Shown: positions 7,763 to 54,420 of the stretch, one piece after another
How the letters are laid out: every line of letters starts with the position of its first letter
Position numbering within the stretch: the stretch's first letter is position 1
DNA from: an uncultured Gammaproteobacteria bacterium
GTDB lineage: Bacteria; Patescibacteriota; Microgenomatia; UBA10105; UBA927
Length of the DNA stretch: 64,000 nt
Assembly: GCA_964573695.1 (NCBI GenBank)
Contig: CAZNKB010000002.1
Coordinates: forward strand, 44,302 to 108,301
Direction of reading: 5' to 3'
Program-made: the position numbers and the translations under genes
Notes under the pieces: model-generated
Seen by the model: only the letters and a program-made list of their open reading frames with translations
What the model was told of the DNA's origin: nothing
Databases searched by the model: none

Positions 7763-9025
7763 TTATTTGGTCTCGTGTACAGTCGGAAGCTTCTTGCCTT
7801 TAAACAGCACGCCCCAATCGTTAATTTTCCCGTTCTCGCCCGCCGGGGGATTGATCCGTGAGGCCTGTAGGACATAGACGACCGGATCGGGTACCTTGTT
7901 CTTTTCGCGGATTTTGTCTTCCCAAAGCTCCAACATGGCCAAGCCGCCACCCAAATAGATACGGGTTTCATTTTTCCCCGACCCGTACATCCGGACATGA
8001 GGATTGATCCTTCCTTCGCGGCCTGTGGATAGCTTGTCCCCCATGTCGCCAACGGTAAATAATCCGAAGTCTACCATTTCGGGCTGTGTGTTGATGAGAT
8101 AATTGGAGCCGATGGCTTTGGTACCCAACCCGTAAGAGAGCGCCCCCACACGCACGAGTAGCGGCACTTTGCGATCCAGCGCACGTTTGATCGCGATTGT
8201 AATACCCTGTGTGGATGCCACTGCCACGCGTATTTCCTCCAGCGTGTGCTTGTGTGGCTTACCCATAGCGTCGTCGACCTCCTGATCTCCGATTATGGTG
8301 GCCCCTGATGCCAGACAGTCGTCAAAACGCGTGAGTCGCGCGTATTCATAAAGCCCCAGGCGTTTGCGTACCGCTGTGGCTCCCTTGGCAGAAAATCCTC
8401 CGAGACAATCGCTTACTGCCTGACGGTATCGCTGTTTCTTTTCGGCAGTCATGTCGGAATCATTGCCAAGAGTCGTAAGCTCACGCATCACCGGCGACAG
8501 GGAGCCGTTTCTGATTTCGATGATAATCTTACCTTCGTCGTCATTTTTGATCGCCCGCATAACGGGAATCTCTTCCTGGGGAGACACAATTTGGGCCGAA
8601 TCCTGTGAAGATATCGCCAGTACCGCCTCACGGTCGGTGTACAACCTACCGTTACCGTCTTCGCAGACGAAATTCAGACTTCTCAGGCCTTCGATAAACT
8701 TTTCGGCTGACAACCGTGTCCCTTCAATCGTCTCGACAAGCAGCGGCCCAAATAATACCTCTGCGTCTCCCGTATTGGGTTTGCCGTATTTTTGGGCTCC
8801 GTGCCACTGCTCCGGGATGCGTATGGTTTCTCCGTCTCCCGCAACTCTGATACGCACGTTTGCCGGTTTCCACTGGTCGTTAAAGTGGGCAAATATCTCC
8901 GGCACGGATATGTCCCGAAGGGATTTGCTCAGCTCTCGTGCCGTAGGCGGCTCCGGTGGGCGTGTAAAAATTTCGGTGAGATGTGAGGCTACATGAGGAG
9001 CGCGGCGTGGTGATTCTATACCCAT
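7763..9025 (-). CDS. Conserved hypothetical protein, 420 aa, family not identified
   Basis: Long ORF of native composition. Tested mentally against RuBisCO-like, thymidine/AMP phosphorylase, HMG-CoA reductase and TldD/PmbA with no convincing match. Confidence 0.7.
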   Translation of the reverse strand: MGIESPRRAPHVASHLTEIFTRPPEPPTARELSKSLRDISVPEIFAHFNDQWKPANVRIRVAGDGETIRIPEQWHGAQKYGKPNTGDAEVLFGPLLVETIEGTRLSAEKFIEGLRSLNFVCEDGNGRLYTDREAVLAISSQDSAQIVSPQEEIPVMRAIKNDDEGKIIIEIRNGSLSPVMRELTTLGNDSDMTAEKKQRYRQAVSDCLGGFSAKGATAVRKRLGLYEYARLTRFDDCLASGATIIGDQEVDDAMGKPHKHTLEEIRVAVASTQGITIAIKRALDRKVPLLVRVGALSYGLGTKAIGSNYLINTQPEMVDFGLFTVGDMGDKLSTGREGRINPHVRMYGSGKNETRIYLGGGLAMLELWEDKIREKNKVPDPVVYVLQASRINPPAGENGKINDWGVLFKGKKLPTVHETK

Positions 9026-14584: not shown

Positions 14585-14631
14585 GTACCCCCTTGCCGGA
14601 TGAATAACAGCGCAAAGAAGCGCTCCGAACC
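14585..14631. repeat. att-like direct repeat copy 2: tRNA-Glu 3'-end fragment plus extension
   Basis: GTACCCCCTTGCCGGATGAATAACAGCGCAAAGAAGCGCTCCGAACC. The first 17 nt match the 3' end of the intact tRNA-Glu at 14776-14792. Confidence 0.6.
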
Positions 14632-14658
14632 GGATTTGGTTTGACTACAAACCACTCA

Positions 14659-14693
14659 CCAGCACTAATGCTCGAAGACTCGCAAAGTGCTGG
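14659..14693. repeat. Hairpin element H1 (CCAGCACT...AGTGCTGG), paralogous to H2 at 14906-14950
   Basis: 8-bp perfect stem between the shared flanks CACTCA and ACTGCG. H2 has CCAGCAGT...ACTGCTGG, a compensatory C:G to G:C change that preserves pairing. Confidence 0.4.
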
Positions 14694-14736
14694 ACTGCGA
14701 ACCGGTAAACCGGTTCAAATCGCCAAGCGAATATTC

Positions 14737-14771
14737 ACAAAAAAATCCGGCGACATGCCGGATTCTTTTTG
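14737..14771. terminator. Hairpin terminator immediately downstream of tRNA-Glu
   Basis: AAAAAAA-TCCGGC-gacat-GCCGGA-TTCTTTTT. Bidirectional geometry. Confidence 0.5.
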
Positions 14772-14775
14772 TGAG

Positions 14776-14849
14776 TACCCCCTGCCGGATTCGAACCGGC
14801 GATTCACGGGCTGAAAACCCGTTGTCCTAGGCCGCTAGACGAAGGGGGC
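14776..14849 (-). tRNA. tRNA-Glu (anticodon TTC)
   Basis: Reverse complement GCCCCCTTCGTCTAGCGGCCTAGGACAACGGGTTTTCAGCCCGTGAATCGCCGGTTCGAATCCGGCAGGGGGTA. Cloverleaf with G1-U72 and anticodon loop UUUUCAG. Confidence 0.85.
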
Positions 14850-14905
14850 AATATTCACTTGTTAACGAATCCGGCAAGCCGGATTGCCGAGATTATTCGG
14901 CACTC

Positions 14906-14950
14906 ACCAGCAGTAAGTCTCGCTTCGCTTGCTCCACTCATCAACTGCTG
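14906..14950. repeat. Hairpin element H2 plus tRNA-Glu 5'-like fragment (GCGCCCCCTTCGTTGCCGG at 14985-15003 on the minus strand)
   Basis: See H1. An additional partial copy of the tRNA-Glu 5' end lies at about 14980-15003. Confidence 0.35.
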
Positions 14951-15122
14951 GACTGCGCCTCGATTCCGATGTTACCGGGGACCGGCAACGAAGGGGGCGC
15001 TACTACCAAGTATTGTACCAAATATCAGGGACAAAAAAAATAACGCCCGAAATCTGTACCAAACAGCACTCCGCATATTTGCGGACTACGTGTTGGCCCA
15101 AAAAGGGCGTTATACCATATCG

Positions 15123-22963: not shown

Positions 22964-25513
22964 GTGATACGTATTCCTCATCTTTCGCAGGCAAAAGCAG
23001 AATCTCTGCTTCGCACATACGGGCCGAACGCCTTGAGTGAGCAATCCTCGCACTCTCCTCTTACGATATTTATCGATCAGTTCAAGAATATCCTCGTCGT
23101 CATGCTTATGGGGGCCGCAGGTCTTTCATTTTTTCTCGGTGACGCATTGGACGGAGCCCTCATCCTGACGATTCTTGTGCTCAACGCGCTGTTAGGGTTC
23201 GCCCAGGAATTCAAAGCAGAGAAAGCCCTCTCTGCACTCAAACGCATGACCGTCGGCATGGTAAAAGTTCTGCGGGACAATAAAATGATTGAACTCCCGA
23301 GTACGGATATCGTCCCGGGAGATATTATCTTTTTGGATGAAGGAGATAAAGTTCCGGCAGACGCAACACTGGTTGAAGCGATCCATATTGAACTAAACGA
23401 GGCAGCGCTTACCGGCGAATCGCTCCCCGTCGAGAAAAATACCACAACAGATCCTGAAATATTCATGGGTACAATAGTTTCGAGAGGGCGTGGTACTGCC
23501 AAAATCACAAAAACAGGCATGCGCACAAAATTTGGCTCCATTGCGACCAAATTGGGAGAAATCACCGACGAAGAAACCCCACTCGAGAAAAAAATGGCGA
23601 CACTAGGCAAACAACTCGGGATGGTCGCACTGGCATGTTCGAGTATTATTTTCGGATACGGGTTTATTCGCCATGATCCGCTATTTGAGTCACTCCTTAC
23701 CGCAATAAGCTTGGCTGTCGCTGCCGTTCCTGAGGGATTACCTGCAGTCGTCACCATTGCTCTTGCTGTGGGAACACAACGTATGGCCCGTCAAAAATCC
23801 ATACTTCGCAAGCTCTCGGCTATTGAATCGTTAGGAAGTGTCACCGTTATTGCCACAGATAAGACTGGCACGCTTACACAAAATGATATGCGCGTGACAG
23901 ACGTATGGGCTGCCGGCAAAGCCTACAAATTAGAAGGCCTCAAGAAAAAAGTCCCTCCGATTCTTAAGAATCTTATTATCACAGGAGTACACTGCAACAA
24001 TGCAAGTTTGTCTCATTCGTATCAGGACGAAAAACCGACAGTCGTCGGAGACAAAACCGAGGGATCGCTTTTGCTGTTTGCCCACGATCTTCATGTATCG
24101 ACGGACGAAATACGTAGCGAAGGATCGCTTGTCGAAGAATTTGCGTTTACTTCCCTGCTTAAAATGATGACCGTCGTCATCAGAAAGGGAAAAAAGTCAT
24201 TCGTATACTCAAAAGGCGCACCAGAGGCAATATTGAATATATCCACTCACTATCAAAAAGGAAATGACGTATATCCACTCACCTCTGCCGCGCGGAAAGA
24301 AATAGAATCAGAGTTCCGGGCGTTCGCCGCAAAAGGCCTACGCATGATCGCACTCGCCAAACGGGATGTGATATGGAAAAAACAATCCCGAGAAGAAATA
24401 GAATCGAACCTTACATTTCTCGGATTTGTTGGAATTGCTGACCCGCCGCGCCCCCAGATTGCCGATGCCGTACACCTCGCTCAAAAAGCCGGGATCACAA
24501 CCGTTATGATTACCGGAGACAATGAATTGACTGCACAAGCCATTGGTGAAGAAATTGGGCTACTCAAATCCGGCGATCAGGTACTCACCGGAGCCCAGTT
24601 TGCTTCCCTTTCAGATGCAGAGGCGACTCAATCACTTGCGAAAACTCGTATTTTTGCCCGGACGACACCGGAGCAAAAACACAGAATTGTGCAGCTGCTT
24701 CAGCGCATGGGACACGTTGTCGCAGTCACGGGAGACGGGGTAAACGACGCCCTGGCACTCAAACAAGCAGATGTCGGAGTAGCTATGGGCATCACAGGAA
24801 CCGACGTCGCCAAAGAAGCCTCGGACATGATTATCACGGACGATAACTATGCGTCGCTCGTAGTAGCTATCGAAGAGGGTAGAACGATTTTTGACAATAT
24901 CAAATCCACCACGAAATATCTGATCGGGTGTAATTTGGGTGAAATAGGAGCTATCACTGGCGGAGTTCTTCTCGGGTGGCCGTTTATCTTAAGCCCGCTT
25001 CATATTCTGTATGTAAACCTCGTGACAGACGGCTTGCCCGCTATCGGGCTCTCCCTTACTCCAAAGCAGGGGGACATCATGGCCCAAAAGCCGCGTATGG
25101 AAAAAACGATATTCAATAACCACGACGTCTTTTGGTTTATAGAAGTCGGCATCATAACGACTCTTGCTACGCTTATTTCCTTTACGATTGGATCGGAAAC
25201 GAGCGTCACATTAGGCAGGACACTGGCGTTTCTGGCGATAATACTCGCGCAGCAGTATATTTTTTATGATATAGCAAGCCGAAACAAAACTATTCTCCAA
25301 CTCTCTGTACGCCGTTTCCCTTGGATCGTATTGCCCGTCATCATTATGATCGGGCAGGTGCTCCTTTTGGAAGTTCCCGCATTTGAACACATCTTCCAAA
25401 CCGTTGCACCGCCGATCATATTTTCCGTACTGAGTGTCGGGATCACAAGCACCTTGCTGATCGTTTCCGAGCTGAGGAAAAAATACGGCAAGCATTTGTA
25501 CTATCATCACTAA
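22964..25513 (+). CDS. P-type cation-transporting ATPase (type IIA Ca2+/Mg2+-ATPase-like), 849 aa, GTG start
   Basis: DKTGTLT phosphorylation motif, TGES actuator, [20 protein letters not shown] hinge. N-terminal [19 protein letters not shown]. Confidence 0.92.
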
Positions 25514-25586
25514 GAACGTCCGAAATTGAACCCATGATGTATAATACAGGCAACGATAATACCGGGACGGTTTTGTACGAATAATT

Positions 25587-26165
25587 ATGGATAAGAAAAA
25601 AGTACTCTTAATCGCAGGCGTCATCTTGATCATATTGGTCATTGCTGGGGCTGCGTATATGTTCGGCAAACGACAATCTTTTCCGGGAACGACAGAAATA
25701 ACCCCGACGCCCACCATAGAACTATCCGTAAGCCCGACCGACGGAACGACGCCCACTCCTTCGCTCACGCCGACCAAATCGCCAACCACCACCCCCACCA
25801 AAAAACCGACACTCACTCCCACCACAAGCCCGACTCCGTCTCCAACCACGACGCCGGGAGTCGTCAACATAGAAGCAAGCGTCACACCTACTACAAGTGC
25901 GGCGTGCAGCCAAAAATTCACCTTCAGCGCAAAAATCTATACTAACGGTGCCGCCACAGTAAAATACAAGTGGCTCCGAAGCGACAACGCAAGCGCGGCG
26001 GAACAAACACTCACCTATACCGAGGCGGGTATGCAAACCGTTACGACAGAATGGACACTCGGACAAGCATCCGGCTCTACCTATAACGGCTGGGAGCGAA
26101 TAGAAATAACAAGTCCGGGATCTGCTTTGGGAAACAAAGCGGAATTTACCCTCTCCTGTCCGTAA
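25587..26165 (+). CDS. Membrane-anchored Thr/Pro-rich repeat protein (192 aa)
   Basis: N-terminal TM helix, about 70-aa TPTPS/PTTTP low-complexity linker, C-terminal globular domain. Confidence 0.6.
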   Translation: MDKKKVLLIAGVILIILVIAGAAYMFGKRQSFPGTTEITPTPTIELSVSPTDGTTPTPSLTPTKSPTTTPTKKPTLTPTTSPTPSPTTTPGVVNIEASVTPTTSAACSQKFTFSAKIYTNGAATVKYKWLRSDNASAAEQTLTYTEAGMQTVTTEWTLGQASGSTYNGWERIEITSPGSALGNKAEFTLSCP

Positions 26166-26200
26166 GCTGACCCTAATGACGGTCAACGGCACCTGTCTTT

Positions 26201-26953
26201 ATGCTCGAACGGTTGCAGGCAACGGTTGCGCGCAGATTACCACAATGGATGTTTGACATCCGCATCTCCCCAAGTTCTCACGAAAGAATCCGAAGTGTTA
26301 GACAAACGCTAAACGAACATCCGTCATGGAACGCCATATTGTACTTTAACCATTTGGCGTACGGAGATCCGGGTATCTGGGGATATATCGCACGGACCGT
26401 AGATCCGGACGCGAGTCGTATCGCGGCCGTACTGGCTTCGAAATATCATACGACGTTTCGCAATAATCCGGCTTTCGCGCTTGCCGCACGCGCCGGGGAC
26501 ATCTTAGGCGGGATCCATGTCATTCCGACTATTCAGGCATATATGGTAGAAGACCCTCACTATGGTTTTACCCAGTCCGACGCAAGGAGAAATCAAAAGG
26601 AAATACTGCAAACCATACACGCATTTAGAAAACGAAAGCCGCTCATGTTACTCATATCGCCCGAAGGCCATAGAAGCGACGACCAAACGCTCGGCCAACC
26701 CGAAAAAGGCGTCGCGTCATTTGGTGCTATGCTCGCTCCCGCGCTTCTGATTCCGACCGGCATTTATTACGAAGGGAACTTCCGAAGGAACGGCATCAAC
26801 ACGCGTTCCCGAAAACACCCCGTCATCGCAATAGCCGAAGTCGGTGAGCCTCTCGTCCAAGAAAACCGCCACCACCGCGTACCGCTCGAAACAATGATGC
26901 ATCACCTTGCGCGGACGCTACCGAGAGAACTTCGCGGAGCCTGGAGAGAATGA
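26201..26953 (+). CDS. PlsC-family lysophospholipid acyltransferase
   Basis: NHLAYGD (NHxxxxD) and SPEGHRS (PEGTR-like) acyltransferase motifs. Confidence 0.7.
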   Translation: MLERLQATVARRLPQWMFDIRISPSSHERIRSVRQTLNEHPSWNAILYFNHLAYGDPGIWGYIARTVDPDASRIAAVLASKYHTTFRNNPAFALAARAGDILGGIHVIPTIQAYMVEDPHYGFTQSDARRNQKEILQTIHAFRKRKPLMLLISPEGHRSDDQTLGQPEKGVASFGAMLAPALLIPTGIYYEGNFRRNGINTRSRKHPVIAIAEVGEPLVQENRHHRVPLETMMHHLARTLPRELRGAWRE

Positions 26954-26988
26954 CATTGCCGCCCAATGTAGATCAGGCCGCTCTTCTT

Positions 26989-26997
26989 TGATATAAT
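26989..26997 (+). promoter_or_regulatory. Extended -10 (TGATATAAT) directly upstream of the tRNA-Lys 5' fragment. Likely the ancestral tRNA promoter, now driving the GIY-YIG/tRNA co-transcript.
   Basis: TGATATAAT at 26989-26997. The tRNA-like fragment begins 7 nt downstream. Confidence 0.35.
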
Positions 26998-27003
26998 TCC
27001 GTT

Positions 27004-27048
27004 ACGGGCCTGTAGCTGAACCCCGATAAGATCGGGGCAGGCGGTAGA
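27004..27048 (+). repeat. Duplicate of tRNA-Lys positions 1-26, interrupted in the D-loop by a 21-nt perfect hairpin (CCCCGATaagATCGGGG)
   Basis: ACGGGCCTGTAGCTGAA[CCCCGATAAGATCGGGGCAGG]CGGTAGAGCAG compared with tRNA-Lys ACGGGCCTGTAGCTCAA-CGGTAGAGCAG, 28/29 identities outside the insert. Confidence 0.6.
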
Positions 27049-27058
27049 GCAGGACAAT

Positions 27059-27316
27059 ATGGCTTGGGTATATATCCTACGTAATACGATAACTAATCGT
27101 TATTATGTTGGATCAACTATTGACCTAAAGAGAAGACTAAAACAGCATAAAAGCGGCAATACGAGAACAACAAAAATATTAGGAACAAAGGACTTGGTTT
27201 ATACGGAAGAATACGCAACGGAAATTGAAGCGAGGAGCAGAGAAAAACAAATAAAGTCGTATAAAAGTAAAGCGTATATAGAAAATTTAATACACGGGCC
27301 TGTAGCTCAACGGTAG
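27059..27316 (+). CDS. Mini GIY-YIG nuclease-domain protein (YhbQ/YazA UPF0213-like), 85 aa. The stop codon is U8-A9-G10 of tRNA-Lys.
   Basis: WVYILRN...YYVGSTIDLKRRLKQHKSG matches GIY...YIG plus the R/H catalytic core. AGGA SD. The last 7 codons are encoded by the tRNA 5' end. AT-rich relative to flanks. Confidence 0.8.
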   Translation: MAWVYILRNTITNRYYVGSTIDLKRRLKQHKSGNTRTTKILGTKDLVYTEEYATEIEARSREKQIKSYKSKAYIENLIHGPVAQR

Positions 27317-27367
27317 AGCAGTAGCCTTTTAAGCTATTGGTTCTGGGTTCGAATCCCAGCGGGCTCA
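27296..27367 (+). tRNA. tRNA-Lys (anticodon TTT)
   Basis: GGGCCTGTAGCTCAACGGTAGAGCAGTAGCCTTTTAAGCTATTGGTTCTGGGTTCGAATCCCAGCGGGCTCA. Canonical D/T arms, anticodon loop CUUUUAA. Confidence 0.85.
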
Positions 27368-27448
27368 CAATTTTGGAAATCGAAACATGGTTGAGGTGAT
27401 AGCTGAATGCTAATGCCATGAGGGCCTAGTCCATTATCACGAATATCT

Positions 27449-27667
27449 TCAATACCTTCCTTCTTTTTCCCATTTACGCCTAAACGCCTCGAAAGATATA
27501 CCTCTTTTGCCGTACGAATTTCTGCGCATCACTTCGGCATCATAGGCGTTTCGAAGCCTGGTAAGACGCTCATGATATGCGTTAAATACTCGCATTTTCT
27601 CCTGAGCCGAACGCGATATCGGTTCTACCGATGAAAACCCACGCAGACCTCTCACAGTATGGTACAT
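27449..27667 (-). CDS. Possible small basic protein (72 aa)
   Basis: ORF only, no SD. Confidence 0.3.
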   Translation of the reverse strand: MYHTVRGLRGFSSVEPISRSAQEKMRVFNAYHERLTRLRNAYDAEVMRRNSYGKRGISFEAFRRKWEKEGRY

Positions 27668-27736
27668 AGTATATCATGGGAACTCAAAGAATCACACAAT
27701 TCTGAAGATTTCTTATCGATATAGCAATAATGTGTA

Positions 27737-28585
27737 TCACGTAGCCCCAGGATAAAGTGTGATCAGTATCTCCCTTATCCTTGTTACCGAAACCAAATGA
27801 CCGTCAGACGGGTACACAATAAGCTTCGATCGAGGCAGCTTGTCGGAGTAAAAATATCCCATGTGTACAATATCAGGATAGTCATCGGCGCCGTACCATA
27901 GGTATATAAATTTTTTGATCTTCTTGAGTTGAAATCCCCAATCTTTTGCCATGATAGCGAGCTCATGCGATGGCCCTTGCGAACCATTTCGAAACGCTTC
28001 TTTCATAGTTTCATGCCCACGCTTAAGCAAAGCTGCGTTTTGATAGAGCCTTCTATCTGCTCTCCCCCATATAAATCTGTACGCGCGGATAGAAAATCCA
28101 TAGTACGTGTTTATGTACTGAATCCTGACCAGGATATTTTGAACCCAACGAATTGTTCCTAACCATAGACGCCAGTCAAATGATCTTCCTTTTGCATACT
28201 CCTTCACTGGCGCAGGACCCACAACTATACCTATATGGGAAATCCGCCTAGGTATTTTATACGCACAGGCAAGGGCATACGGACTTCCTCCAGATACGCC
28301 CAAAATGGAAAATCTCTTAAGCCCCAAGTGATCTGCTATTGCCACGACATCATCTGGCCAATCCAGCAAAACTCTTCCTTCCTGATAATCAGACGCGCCA
28401 AATCCCGGTCTGTCTGGAGCGATAATACGAATACCCCTACGTTTTGCTATCTTGTCGTATATGGCTGCGCTCACATGGCTCGCTGGCCAGCCATGAAAAT
28501 ACAACACCGGCGTGCCCAGGGAATCTCCATATTCAAAAACAGATATTTTACGCTGATTGGGTCGCACCACAATAAATTGTCGCAT
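27737..28585 (-). CDS. Alpha/beta-fold hydrolase
   Basis: HGWPAS oxyanion region. GVSGGS nucleophile elbow (GxSxG). Confidence 0.8.
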   Translation of the reverse strand: MRQFIVVRPNQRKISVFEYGDSLGTPVLYFHGWPASHVSAAIYDKIAKRRGIRIIAPDRPGFGASDYQEGRVLLDWPDDVVAIADHLGLKRFSILGVSGGSPYALACAYKIPRRISHIGIVVGPAPVKEYAKGRSFDWRLWLGTIRWVQNILVRIQYINTYYGFSIRAYRFIWGRADRRLYQNAALLKRGHETMKEAFRNGSQGPSHELAIMAKDWGFQLKKIKKFIYLWYGADDYPDIVHMGYFYSDKLPRSKLIVYPSDGHLVSVTRIREILITLYPGAT

Positions 28586-28650
28586 AGGCTTGAAATACGT
28601 ATATTTTTATAGTGTTTTATAAAGGCATACGTGTATAATACACAAGATAC

Positions 28651-29301
28651 ATGATGACCACACAAGACAAAGCGCTCGAAATATATAAGCGGCTCGCCAA
28701 AGCGACACCGAACCCCAAAGTGGAACTCAATTTTTCCAATCCTTTTGAACTGCTGGTCGCCACCATGCTGGCCGCCCAATGTACGGACAAACTGGTAAAC
28801 TCAGTCACCCCTGCGTTATTTTCCAAATACAAAACAATAAAAAGTTTTGCCGACGCAACACCGGACCAAATTGATCTCATGATTACCAAAATCAATTTCC
28901 ACGCAAACAAGGCAAAAAACATCCACGTTGCGGCTTGTATGATCATGGATACATACGGTGGCGCGGTTCCCAAAACCATGGAGGAACTGGACGCGCTCCC
29001 CGGCGTAGCCAGAAAAACAGCAAACGTGGTATTGGGAAGTGCGTTCGGGATCACCTCGGGCATCGTCATCGACACCCACGGCATACGGCTCTCAAACAAA
29101 CTCGGGTTAACCACCCAAAAAGATCCGGTAAAAATCGAGCAAGACCTAATGAAGCTTCTGCCCCGAGACACATGGATCAAATTCGGGCATTTGCTGACCC
29201 TTCACGGAAGATACGTATGCACCGCTCGCCCGCACACGTGTGAGGGATGTCCGCTTAATGACCTGTGTCCGGAATATCCAAGCTGGCACCGTTCCCGCTA
29301 A
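28651..29301 (+). CDS. nth: Endonuclease III (HhH-GPD with 4Fe-4S)
   Basis: HhH-GPD region (LPGVARKTANVVL, D in VIDTHGIR) and C-terminal CTARPHTCEGCPLNDLC cluster. Confidence 0.9.
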   Translation: MMTTQDKALEIYKRLAKATPNPKVELNFSNPFELLVATMLAAQCTDKLVNSVTPALFSKYKTIKSFADATPDQIDLMITKINFHANKAKNIHVAACMIMDTYGGAVPKTMEELDALPGVARKTANVVLGSAFGITSGIVIDTHGIRLSNKLGLTTQKDPVKIEQDLMKLLPRDTWIKFGHLLTLHGRYVCTARPHTCEGCPLNDLCPEYPSWHRSR

Positions 29302-54035: not shown

Positions 54036-54085
54036 CGCGGGATTAGTCGCCTCTTCGGCGACCCGCCGATGAGGCGGGTACACTC
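54036..54085 (+). repeat. Scrambled duplicate of the tRNA-Gly 5' end interrupted by two hairpins
   Basis: GTCGCGGGATTAGT (compare tRNA GTGCGGGCGTAGT), then hairpins GTCGCCtcttcGGCGAC and CCCGCCgatgaGGCGGG, then GTACACTCA (compare tRNA D-arm GTACACTGG). A further TACACTGG copy lies at 53995-54002. Confidence 0.45.
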
Positions 54086-54087
54086 AT

Positions 54088-54354
54088 ATGTATTATGTTT
54101 ACGTATTGGTAAGCAAGATAAATAAGAGTAAATACATAGGCTCAACAAGTAATCTTAAACAACGAATCAGTGATCATAACGAAAAACAAGGGGGCACGTA
54201 TACCAAAAAATATGCCCCCTTTGATTTAGTTTTCTATGAGGCCTATCTTGCAAAGAAAGATGCGATGAAACAAGAATTATTTTATAAGAGCGGGTACGGA
54301 CGAGAAGTATTACATGGTAAAATTGAATGGAGTCTAAAGTTAGTGCGGGCGTAG
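54088..54354 (+). CDS. Mini GIY-YIG nuclease-domain protein (YhbQ/UPF0213-like), 88 aa, paralogue of 27059-27316. The stop codon is U8-A9-G10 of tRNA-Gly.
   Basis: YYVYVLVSKINKSKYIGSTSNLKQRISDHNEKQGG.... The last 3 codons plus TAG are encoded by tRNA-Gly positions 1-10. AT-rich. Confidence 0.8.
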   Translation: MYYVYVLVSKINKSKYIGSTSNLKQRISDHNEKQGGTYTKKYAPFDLVFYEAYLAKKDAMKQELFYKSGYGREVLHGKIEWSLKLVRA

Positions 54355-54415
54355 TACACTGGTAGTATATATCCTTCCCAAGGATAGGAAGAGGGTTCGA
54401 TTCCCTTCGCCCGCT
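54345..54415 (+). tRNA. tRNA-Gly (anticodon CCC)
   Basis: GCGGGCGTAGTACACTGGTAGTATATATCCTTCCCAAGGATAGGAAGAGGGTTCGATTCCCTTCGCCCGCT. Confidence 0.85.
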
Positions 54416-54420
54416 CAAAT

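Follow-up and report, generated by a model that had tools for sequence, protein, structure and literature searches.

A stand-alone GIY-YIG nuclease gene set between two copies of a transfer RNA 5′ end in a patescibacterial genome: a candidate selfish element of bacterial transfer RNA genes

We describe a transfer RNA (tRNA) gene for lysine and the small nuclease gene that overlaps it in a 64-kb stretch of DNA from an uncultured bacterium of the Patescibacteriota lineage (contig CAZNKB010000002.1; hereafter the window, with positions numbered from its first letter). All parts of the locus lie on the plus strand. The first is an extended −10 promoter, TGATATAAT (26989–26997), read from the sequence and from comparison with an orthologous locus that lacks the insert (L110, discussed below). 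After a spacer of 8 nucleotides (nt) comes a partial copy, or relic, of the tRNA 5′ end in two parts: GGGCCTGTAGCTgAA (27006–27020), which copies tRNA-Lys nt 1–15 with 14 of 15 positions identical (C13 is replaced by G), and CGGTAGAGCAG (27042–27052), identified by repeat analysis, which copies nt 16–26 exactly (11/11). The two are separated, within the D-loop, by a 21-nt insertion (27021–27041) composed of the perfect hairpin CCCCGAT-AAG-ATCGGGG (27021–27037) and the tetranucleotide CAGG. The hexamer GACAAT then leads to the ATG of an 85-codon open reading frame (ORF; 27059–27316) for a minimal, stand-alone GIY-YIG nuclease resembling UPF0213 and Slx1 proteins, as judged from Pfam, its homologs and an AlphaFold2 model. 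The GCAGGA that ends the second relic part gives rise to a Shine-Dalgarno-like AGGA (27051–27054), 4 nt upstream of the ATG, which may serve in ribosome binding. The ORF runs into an intact tRNA-Lys(UUU) gene (27296–27368; called by ARAGORN and scoring 73.4 bits against the Rfam tRNA model) that has the same sequence as the tRNA of the insert-free allele. Its stop codon, TAG (27314–27316), is nt 19–21 of the tRNA in linear numbering, part of the GG-UAG of the D-loop and stem.

An earlier note on this DNA, made from the letters alone, had proposed that the ORF lacks a stop of its own and takes its end from the tRNA, and the frame read directly from the sequence (GGG CCT GTA GCT CAA CGG TAG) agrees. 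The same note mistook U8-A9-G10 for the stop and had nt 1–10 supply seven codons; that TAG, at nt 8–10 of tRNA-Lys, is out of frame, and nt 1–21 contribute six codons (GPVAQR) and the stop. The upstream duplicate of nt 1–26 that it reported is present, although the count, with the AC that precedes nt 1 in both copies, is 27 of 28 identities and not 28 of 29. This duplicate exceeds chance: with at most one mismatch allowed, the 12-mer GGGCCTGTAGCT is confined within the 64 kb to the relic and the tRNA (0.12 expected), and an exact 11-mer follows collinearly in both. The perfect hairpin is as the note gave it, and the ORF is AT-rich, as it had stated (about 35% G+C, against 50–58% in the flanks).

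We also searched the locus for other signals. A consensus scan of 26700–27700 for sigma-70 promoters and terminators returned no sites, since TGATATAAT has no −35 match; our promoter call is based on the extended −10 element and on the insert-free allele. In an RNA fold of the leader (27004–27075), the hairpin forms and the total energy is ordinary (z −1.09), which does not support a larger structured RNA. An Rfam E-value scan of 26000–28500 found the contiguous tRNA alone, together with a sub-threshold, chance match to a snoRNA-like family.

The protein consists of the nuclease module alone, as had been suspected: PF01541 (59.6 bits against a cut-off of 22.6; E 3.8e-16; residues 1–70) is the sole Pfam domain in its 85 residues. 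Y5, Y16, R26, H30 and E62 are invariant in 26 sequences, and alignment with PDB entry 1zg2 and the I-TevI domain, together with general knowledge of the fold, suggests catalytic roles for the conserved Tyr, Arg and Glu. The best matches of a PDB profile search were 1zg2 (BH0048; E 4e-9) and 1ywl (EF2693; E 6e-7), followed by the catalytic domain of I-TevI and by Slx1. AlphaFold2 predicts a three-stranded sheet with helices, in keeping with the GIY-YIG fold (strands 2–9, 14–20 and 45–52; helices 23–32, 36–41, 55–68 and 71–79), at a mean predicted local distance difference test (pLDDT) score of 86.7. The only disordered part is the tRNA-encoded residues 82–85 (pLDDT below 50). Foldseek matched the model to 1zg2, Slx1, HIGLE, the I-TevI domain and the N-terminal domain of UvrC. 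The protein is thus best classed as a UPF0213 or prokaryotic Slx1-like stand-alone GIY-YIG domain. An enzyme of I-TevI or Seg type was considered and rejected, as the protein has no linker or C-terminal domain and only six disordered, tRNA-encoded residues follow the catalytic one. TIGR01453, a model for group I intron endonucleases, reached 31 bits against a cut-off of 56 and covered residues 2–39 only; a PADLOC defense-system scan gave only weak matches to the GIY motif, and PHROGs matches were to the N-terminal 30–40 residues of phage homing endonucleases. Among 1.84 billion representative proteins, a profile search returned 2,387 clusters (50% identity) at E ≤1e-10 and 16,503 at E ≤1e-3. 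Pairwise proportions of nonsynonymous differences (pN 0.11–0.30) lie far below those of synonymous ones (pS 0.5–0.86), and dN/dS is 0.08–0.3 where dS is measurable; these values indicate that the protein is under purifying selection and has been kept functional over a long time.

The earlier note had proposed insertion into a tRNA gene, leaving a disabled 5′ copy and a restored intact tRNA, and had suggested a search for insert-free alleles in relatives. Such alleles exist. We scanned metagenome contigs with the core of the window tRNA-Lys, which returned 57 loci. One of these, L110 from a related metagenome, aligns with the window over 25406–27021 (70% identity) and 28654–29279 (75%), the second block covering an nth-like ORF that starts at 28651 in the window. 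L110 has the same upstream gene, promoter (cttctttgatataattcc) and downstream nth-like gene, and its tRNA-Lys is 100% identical to that of the window. There, cttctttgatataattcc is followed by 5–6 bases and then directly by the intact tRNA; the locus contains no ORF, no hairpin and no 5′ tRNA copy. A second pair consists of the filled loci L001 and L105 and the empty L084, with 79% identity over 3.9 kb upstream. Because of the empty alleles L110 and L084, we identify TGATATAAT as the native promoter of the tRNA, as the note had it, and the upstream copy as the displaced 5′ end of the gene. Relative to the insert-free ortholog, the filled allele has gained about 290 bp, comprising the 17-bp palindrome, the 237 bp of the nuclease core ORF and a further copy of tRNA nt 1–26 by which the tRNA is made whole again. 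Homology between the window and the filled L001 begins exactly at 27006.

The window, L001, L084, L094 and L110 appear to derive from one ancestral locus, in which an ATPase gene is followed by tRNA-Lys; at this otherwise conserved site the insert is polymorphic, present in the window and L001 and absent from L110 and L084. The copies in L001 and L105 are decaying, with a TGA at codon 3 and a more degenerate relic. Separately, about 1.28 kb between the tRNA-Lys and the nth-like gene of the window (27369–28650) is missing from L110. It holds an alpha/beta hydrolase gene on the minus strand (27737–28585) and a 72-residue ORF (27449–27667), and is, judging by the alignment, a second indel adjoining the tRNA 3′ end.

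The arrangement is not singular to the window. Among 143 close homologs of the protein, those with names are Patescibacteria proteins, and many end in GPVAQR, GSVAQR, …GR, …GEVA or RATSSIGRA, which are translated tRNA 5′ ends. We fetched 80 genomic loci of homologs, which with the window gave 94 near-full-length matches. In 63 of the 94, an intact tRNA on the same strand starts between about −60 and +90 nt from the end of the protein match, and 51 of these 63 pairs also have a partial 5′ tRNA copy within about 160 nt upstream of the ORF. A mirror form, with the intact tRNA upstream of the ORF, accounts for 20 of the 94; a second, downstream tRNA copy was detected in 13 of the 20 and is disrupted by a hairpin in those inspected. 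The remaining 11 have neither arrangement, some of them at contig ends. The layout thus recurs at dozens of tRNA genes across several bacterial phyla. Target tRNAs span 20 anticodon species, and carriers include Patescibacteria, Bacteroidota, Ignavibacteriota and Omnitrophota, among others; mirror forms with a duplicated 3′ end occur in Bacteroidota and Ignavibacteria. The stop codon lies within the tRNA in 48 of 61 pairs, ending at nt 10 in 20 pairs (U8-A9-G10 is thus the commonest position among relatives), at nt 15 in 14 and at nt 21 in four. Of 42 related loci, 24 have TATAAT, with at most one mismatch, in the 35 nt that precede the relic, and 9 have it in a control region.

All of these data come from metagenome assemblies, and short repeats can mislead assemblers, so that faulty assembly around a repeated tRNA, or an ORF that lies next to a tRNA by chance, might in principle mimic the layout. 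We regard this as extremely improbable. The same architecture is found in more than 60 independent assemblies from different projects, the proteins form a conserved family with a confidently predicted fold, and the repeat statistics are strong; from tRNA gene density, we estimate chance adjacency of ORF and tRNA at well under 1%.

Within any one genome only some tRNAs carry the unit, and different genomes carry it at different tRNAs. Several loci have been occupied more than once. L005 (3930–4620) reads relic 1, ORF 1, relic 2, ORF 2, tRNA-Arg(UCG); the two relics are identical to each other (GCGCCTATAGCTCAACGGATAG), and the intact tRNA (GCACCCG...CGGGTGC) differs from them in both acceptor strands, an arrangement that points to serial invasion together with replacement or co-conversion of the whole tRNA. 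In L008 (3900–4700), a tRNA-His lies between two different GIY-YIG elements: on its 5′ side a clade-A ORF (clade A being the clade of the window protein, with at least 55% identity, in Microgenomates-type genomes) with a relic whose acceptor strand is mismatched to tRNA-His, and on its 3′ side a 39%-identical ORF followed by a 3′ fragment of tRNA-His. Tandem arrays of ORF and tRNA-Pro occur in L073 and L052. In a neighbor-joining tree of clade A based on 78 residues, Lys, Arg, His, Gly and Ile targets are interspersed; a tree from so few residues is only suggestive.

The relics themselves follow a regular plan. In clade A the order is a −10 box, tRNA nt 1–15, the hairpin CCCCGAT-NNN-ATCGGGG, a repeat of the local D-loop 4-mer (TCAA, TCAG or TAAA), tRNA nt 16 to about 24–31, a few bases and the ATG. 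Both halves agree with the local tRNA, down to bases of the acceptor stem and even of the anticodon stem. Across related loci, the relic is identical to the local tRNA at 15/15 positions in 31 of 56. The hairpin sequence, unlike the relic halves, is common to different tRNAs and genomes, and it sits at the same D-loop position, within CA(A/G)(C/T)G. In the window it lies between A15 and C16 of C13-A-A-C-G17. Counts of relic–tRNA mismatches (30 in nt 1–7 and 8 in nt 8–12) would hint at replacement of alleles in preference to decay, but they are biased by the way relics were found and are not relied on. We also considered whether the downstream flank is part of the element, and rejected this: only the window and L138 share about 28 nt past the tRNA, and other loci do not. 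L138 and L140 align at 96% identity as far as the final base of tRNA-Lys (position 1810) and are unrelated past it, which marks the tRNA 3′ end itself as a breakpoint of rearrangement or integration.

Hairpins of this type, counted in full and reduced to 40 after removal of ten redundant loci, are flanked on both sides by a perfect 4-mer duplication in 21 cases (about 0.16 expected), with TCAA, TCAG, TAAA, TAGA, TTAA and TTGA as the flanking 4-mers. This indicates that they are separate 17-bp insertions with a 4-bp target duplication; the hairpin of the window interrupts the duplicate, as first proposed, and is an insertion with a target duplication of its own, not a mere split. The CAGG that follows it is a degenerate leftover of the 4-nt flank duplication. 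Some hairpins occur in tandem or nested in one another's loops (L004, L013 and L043) and a few as solitary copies (L010 at 1805, L043 at 442–476, and L166), the majority being in relics. The 150 nt ahead of the ORFs contain GC-rich perfect hairpins at 13 times the density of the rest of the loci. The copy in L166, a 94-kb IMG/VR contig, is a lone CCCCGATTTAATCGGGG palindrome (7887–7907) with TTGA on both sides; the surrounding DNA is AT-rich and intergenic, and no GIY-YIG gene is close by. Viral contigs yielded one full-length relative and two hairpin matches in all, which does not point to phages as main carriers.

Hairpin type appears to follow nuclease clade in the loci that we inspected, as judged by eye. 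A second class that targets the very same tRNA-Lys has TCCGGC-TGA-GCCGGA and a relic up to nt 43. In tRNA-Ser relics a double hairpin (CCACCGCC..GGCGGGG and TCCCGCC..GGCGGGA) lies in the anticodon loop, in Gly and Glu relics CCCCGCC..GGCGGGG takes the place of the anticodon arm, and in the Bacteroidota downstream copy the same CCCCGCC..GGCGGGG takes that of the D-arm. Downstream of tRNA-Ser(UGA) in L058 (4340–4720) and L041 (4340–4410), we noted tandem repeats of about 160 nt that are tRNA-Ser fragments broken by CCACCGC../TCCCGCC.. double hairpins. In the Bacteroidota loci L072 (4234–4309), L044 (about 295–390), L057 and L064, a GC-rich hairpin, CCCCGC-ATTT-GCGGGG, replaces the D-arm of a downstream tRNA-Pro copy and is nearly equal to it in length; ARAGORN still calls the disrupted L072 copy a tRNA, a possible source of false annotation.

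In all loci the repeat begins at tRNA nt 1 (±2) and has the sequence of the local tRNA, the two relics of L005 are identical, and the palindromes do produce 4-bp target duplications. These features might suggest a transposon-like cut-and-paste event, in which staggered cuts at nt 1 and nt 26 make the 26-nt repeat a true target-site duplication. We consider this very unlikely. The duplicated part differs greatly in length within classes as well as between them (nt 22 to 64 among classes), the L005 tRNA differs from its relics in both acceptor strands, which a simple target duplication cannot produce, and GIY-YIG enzymes leave 2-nt 3′ overhangs, as shown for SegB (PMC2330249).

The same variation in length suits homology better than a fixed staggered cut, and favors an alternative in which the unit is a recombination cassette: a circle would be excised between the relic and the tRNA 5′ end and re-enter in Campbell fashion by host homologous recombination, with the nuclease merely stimulating recombination or serving as an addiction or competition factor. 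Direct repeats of 15–64 nt flank the ORF in every class, and a single crossover in nt 1–15 would yield exactly the observed relic with hairpin, ORF and intact tRNA. Against this, the homology blocks are very short for RecA (15 and 11 nt in the window), circle junctions were not observed, and the apparent link between hairpin type and nuclease clade is left unaccounted for. We therefore judge the cassette unlikely, though it deserves to be kept in mind.

We favor the interpretation, to which we assign a probability of roughly 0.6, that 27006–27368 is a tRNA-Lys gene invaded by a tiny selfish endonuclease element. The AT-rich insert, the decaying L001/L105 copies, the serial and double invasions, the tandem arrays, the further occupied tRNA genes of the window (described below) and the interspersed targets are the grounds on which we propose a selfish life cycle. 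In the mechanism that we envisage, the nuclease would nick or cut the uninterrupted tRNA gene in a loop region, which in clade A would be the D-loop CAACG. The nuclease domain of I-TevI prefers CNNNG, with CAACG as its cognate motif (PMC12774661), and the CAACG at the hairpin site, which resembles this cleavage motif, may offer a lead. The break would be repaired by copying the filled allele, with relic nt 1–15 as the left arm and tRNA nt 16–73 as the right; the hairpin, nt 16–26, the ORF and a fresh nt 1–15 would be copied in between. Mobile ORFs of fungal mitochondria bring in a replacement gene end by the same logic (PMC3630166). The palindrome would render the relic uncuttable and would also break up a direct repeat otherwise able to delete the element.

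Expression would be tied to that of the tRNA. The ORF would use the strong tRNA promoter, the relic serving as its 5′ untranslated region, and it is plausible that the tRNA is matured from the nuclease mRNA. Ribonuclease P (RNase P) cleavage of tRNA precursors and the rescue of ribosomes by transfer-messenger RNA are textbook biology and form the basis of a further proposal: since the stop codon lies inside the tRNA, a cut by RNase P at tRNA nt 1 (27296) would leave a non-stop nuclease mRNA. Each transcript would then be contested between translation of the nuclease and maturation of the tRNA. AT-rich, −10-like hexamers in the 3′ end of the ORF may constitute a second promoter.

Several observations weigh against a selfish element. 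We infer spread by break-and-repair, and cleavage enters this account by inference only. L001, which is filled, is nearer to the empty L084 (79%) than to the window (72%), and the polymorphism is compatible both with two gains and with a single gain and several losses. No near-identical elements at different loci were found among 137 loci, and one exact protein, P0005, occurs on 24 contigs but always at a single locus. Synonymous sites are saturated, so the copies are old, as they would also be had a host function been retained. The protein has no DNA-binding domain. Moreover, the intact tRNA next to the ORF does not differ from its counterpart in the empty allele, so that a target wholly within the tRNA would still be cuttable in the filled allele and self-immunity would be without explanation; switching of tRNA species with a matching acceptor stem is likewise left unexplained. 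The identity of the tRNA, the missing DNA-binding domain, the lack of recent copies and the species switching keep both the recombination cassette and a host function in play.

In its host-function form, the gene is domesticated: the co-transcribed protein would act on tRNA or tRNA genes in processing, repair or quality control, the hairpin relic would be a regulatory leader, and nothing would currently be mobile. Long purifying selection with saturated dS, the retention of the arrangement across phyla and the lack of recent copies at different loci all fit this account, and a prokaryotic Slx1-like GIY-YIG domain fused to a TrmH-type tRNA G18 methyltransferase provides a hint of a role in RNA metabolism (PMC1564403). 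Orthologous loci with an identical tRNA nonetheless do without the ORF, carriage is limited to some tRNAs that differ between genomes, and the relics are plainly broken pieces of the local tRNA and not a conserved leader. Pseudogenized copies, nested or double invasions and AT-rich composition also argue against a gene that serves the host, and we rate the chance of one as distinctly low.

The window contains a second unit, again on the plus strand. Its ORF (54088–54354; Pfam 68 bits, E 9e-19) encodes 88 residues that are 36% identical to the first protein, and its stop codon is U8-A9-G10 of an intact tRNA-Gly(CCC) gene (54345–54416; ARAGORN). Upstream lies a relic (54037–54087) consisting of tRNA-Gly nt 1–11 (9/11 identical), two hairpins, CGCC-TCTTC-GGCG (54048–54060) and CCCGCC-GATGA-GGCGGG (54062–54078), and TACACT (nt 11–16); this relic was read by eye, and its automatic alignment is not significant (p 0.2). 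In addition, on the minus strand around a tRNA-Glu gene (14775–14849, within 14590–15020), GCGCCCCCTTCGT, a copy of the first 11 nt, lies about 130 nt upstream of the tRNA and directly behind the extended −10 box TGGTACAAT; hairpins and no ORF follow, and the site may be an ORF-less relic of an element of the same kind. About 240 nt downstream of tRNA-Glu, TCCGGCAAGGGGGTAC is an att-like repeat of the tRNA 3′ end, and a hairpin of about 50 nt, GCAGTCCAGCA...TGCTGGTGAGTG, is present on both sides of the gene. Of the five tRNAs in the window, two thus carry units and one possibly an ORF-less relic.

If the selfish interpretation holds, it offers a concrete role for the large group of proteins annotated as "GIY-YIG nuclease family protein" of unknown function, and implies that essential tRNA genes, including those of small-genome bacteria, are open to 0.3-kb parasites that preserve the tRNA by partial duplication. 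It raises the mechanistic question of how an 80-residue catalytic domain without a DNA-binding domain chooses its site and spares its own tRNA, and it brings three processes together on one transcript, namely use of a tRNA promoter, RNase P processing and non-stop translation. Annotation is affected as well: the relics amount to pseudogene fragments of tRNAs, the ORFs share bases with tRNA genes, and a tRNA finder may accept a hairpin-disrupted copy, as happened in L072. A motif-directed nuclease that is only a domain may also interest enzyme engineers, by analogy with Tev fusions.

We speculate further, while holding it doubtful, that the bare GIY-YIG domain and the 17-bp palindromes constitute a two-part mobile system that is mechanistically new. 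In that event, the nuclease would recognize loops of tRNA genes through their structure or through a CNNNG-type motif, and the relic RNA or the hairpin might act as a cofactor. The nuclease would mobilize its own gene and perhaps also an unusually small, target-duplicating DNA insertion, and much of the UPF0213 family would be tRNA-gene parasites with RNase P-gated expression.

The full-text literature that we searched, from which most subscription journals are absent, contained no description of tRNA-nested mini GIY-YIG elements in bacteria, and the literature searched reported no function, mobility or tRNA linkage for the UPF0213 family. Several known systems nevertheless share features with the unit. 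Islands and prophages that integrases insert into tRNA genes keep the tRNA intact with a replacement piece and leave a partial direct repeat. Their integration depends on a tyrosine or serine recombinase, the part that they duplicate is the 3′ end, and they extend over kilobases, whereas here there is no recombinase, the 5′ end is duplicated and the insert is 290 bp; an integrase-mediated island was accordingly rejected, the insert having one ORF and the repeat being the 5′ end. Bacterial tRNA genes interrupted by a group I intron that encodes a homing endonuclease likewise have a nuclease gene inside them. A group I intron was also rejected, because Rfam finds the tRNA alone and the functional tRNA is contiguous, with no need for splicing.

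The nearest relatives by sequence and fold are UPF0213, YhbQ and Slx1-like proteins (1zg2, BH0048; 1ywl, EF2693), and a 2006 survey described prokaryotic Slx1-like proteins as minimal GIY-YIG domains that stand alone without auxiliary domains (PMC1564403). Seg enzymes and I-TevI share the GIY-YIG catalytic chemistry, and the I-TevI cognate CAACG occurs at the D-loop hairpin site of the window tRNA. SegB, a free-standing GIY-YIG homing endonuclease of phage T4, is encoded among tRNA genes (PMC2330249). The seg genes of T4-like phages are free-standing and spread by cutting a nearby conserved site, being copied together with flanking markers. Seg and Tev enzymes, however, are two-domain proteins of about 200–250 residues with a DNA-binding domain, whereas the present protein has one domain; their genes lie between genes or in introns and, unlike the present elements, do not duplicate part of the target. 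Lacking the two-domain build, the unit is not of I-TevI or Seg type by membership. It would work like a homing or mobile-ORF element and belongs, by membership, to the UPF0213/Slx1-like stand-alone proteins.

The closest parallel in organization is provided by the mobile ORFs (mORFs) of fungal mitochondria, endonuclease ORF inserts that carry a duplicated gene end and are sometimes stop-less and in phase with the gene (PMC3630166). In Allomyces macrogynus atp6 and in Glomus atp6, atp9, cox2 and nad3, a LAGLIDADG or GIY-YIG ORF is accompanied by a partial gene copy; the gene functions as a hybrid, and the displaced native part is left alongside as a relic. Allomyces mitochondrial DNA reportedly also carries G+C-rich "double-hairpin elements" near such insertions, as Paquin et al. 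are said to have described in 2000. The window unit has the same plan, an endonuclease ORF between a functional gene copy and a displaced partial one. It differs from mORFs in residing on a bacterial chromosome, in targeting a tRNA gene, in having for its nuclease about 80 residues of catalytic domain and no more, and in the part duplicated, for which members of the window's clade use the 5′ end and the mirror forms the 3′ end. In the one filled and empty pair available for comparison, the window and L110, the replacement part is identical to the native sequence and so bears no mark of a foreign origin; in L005 the intact tRNA differs from the relic in both acceptor strands.

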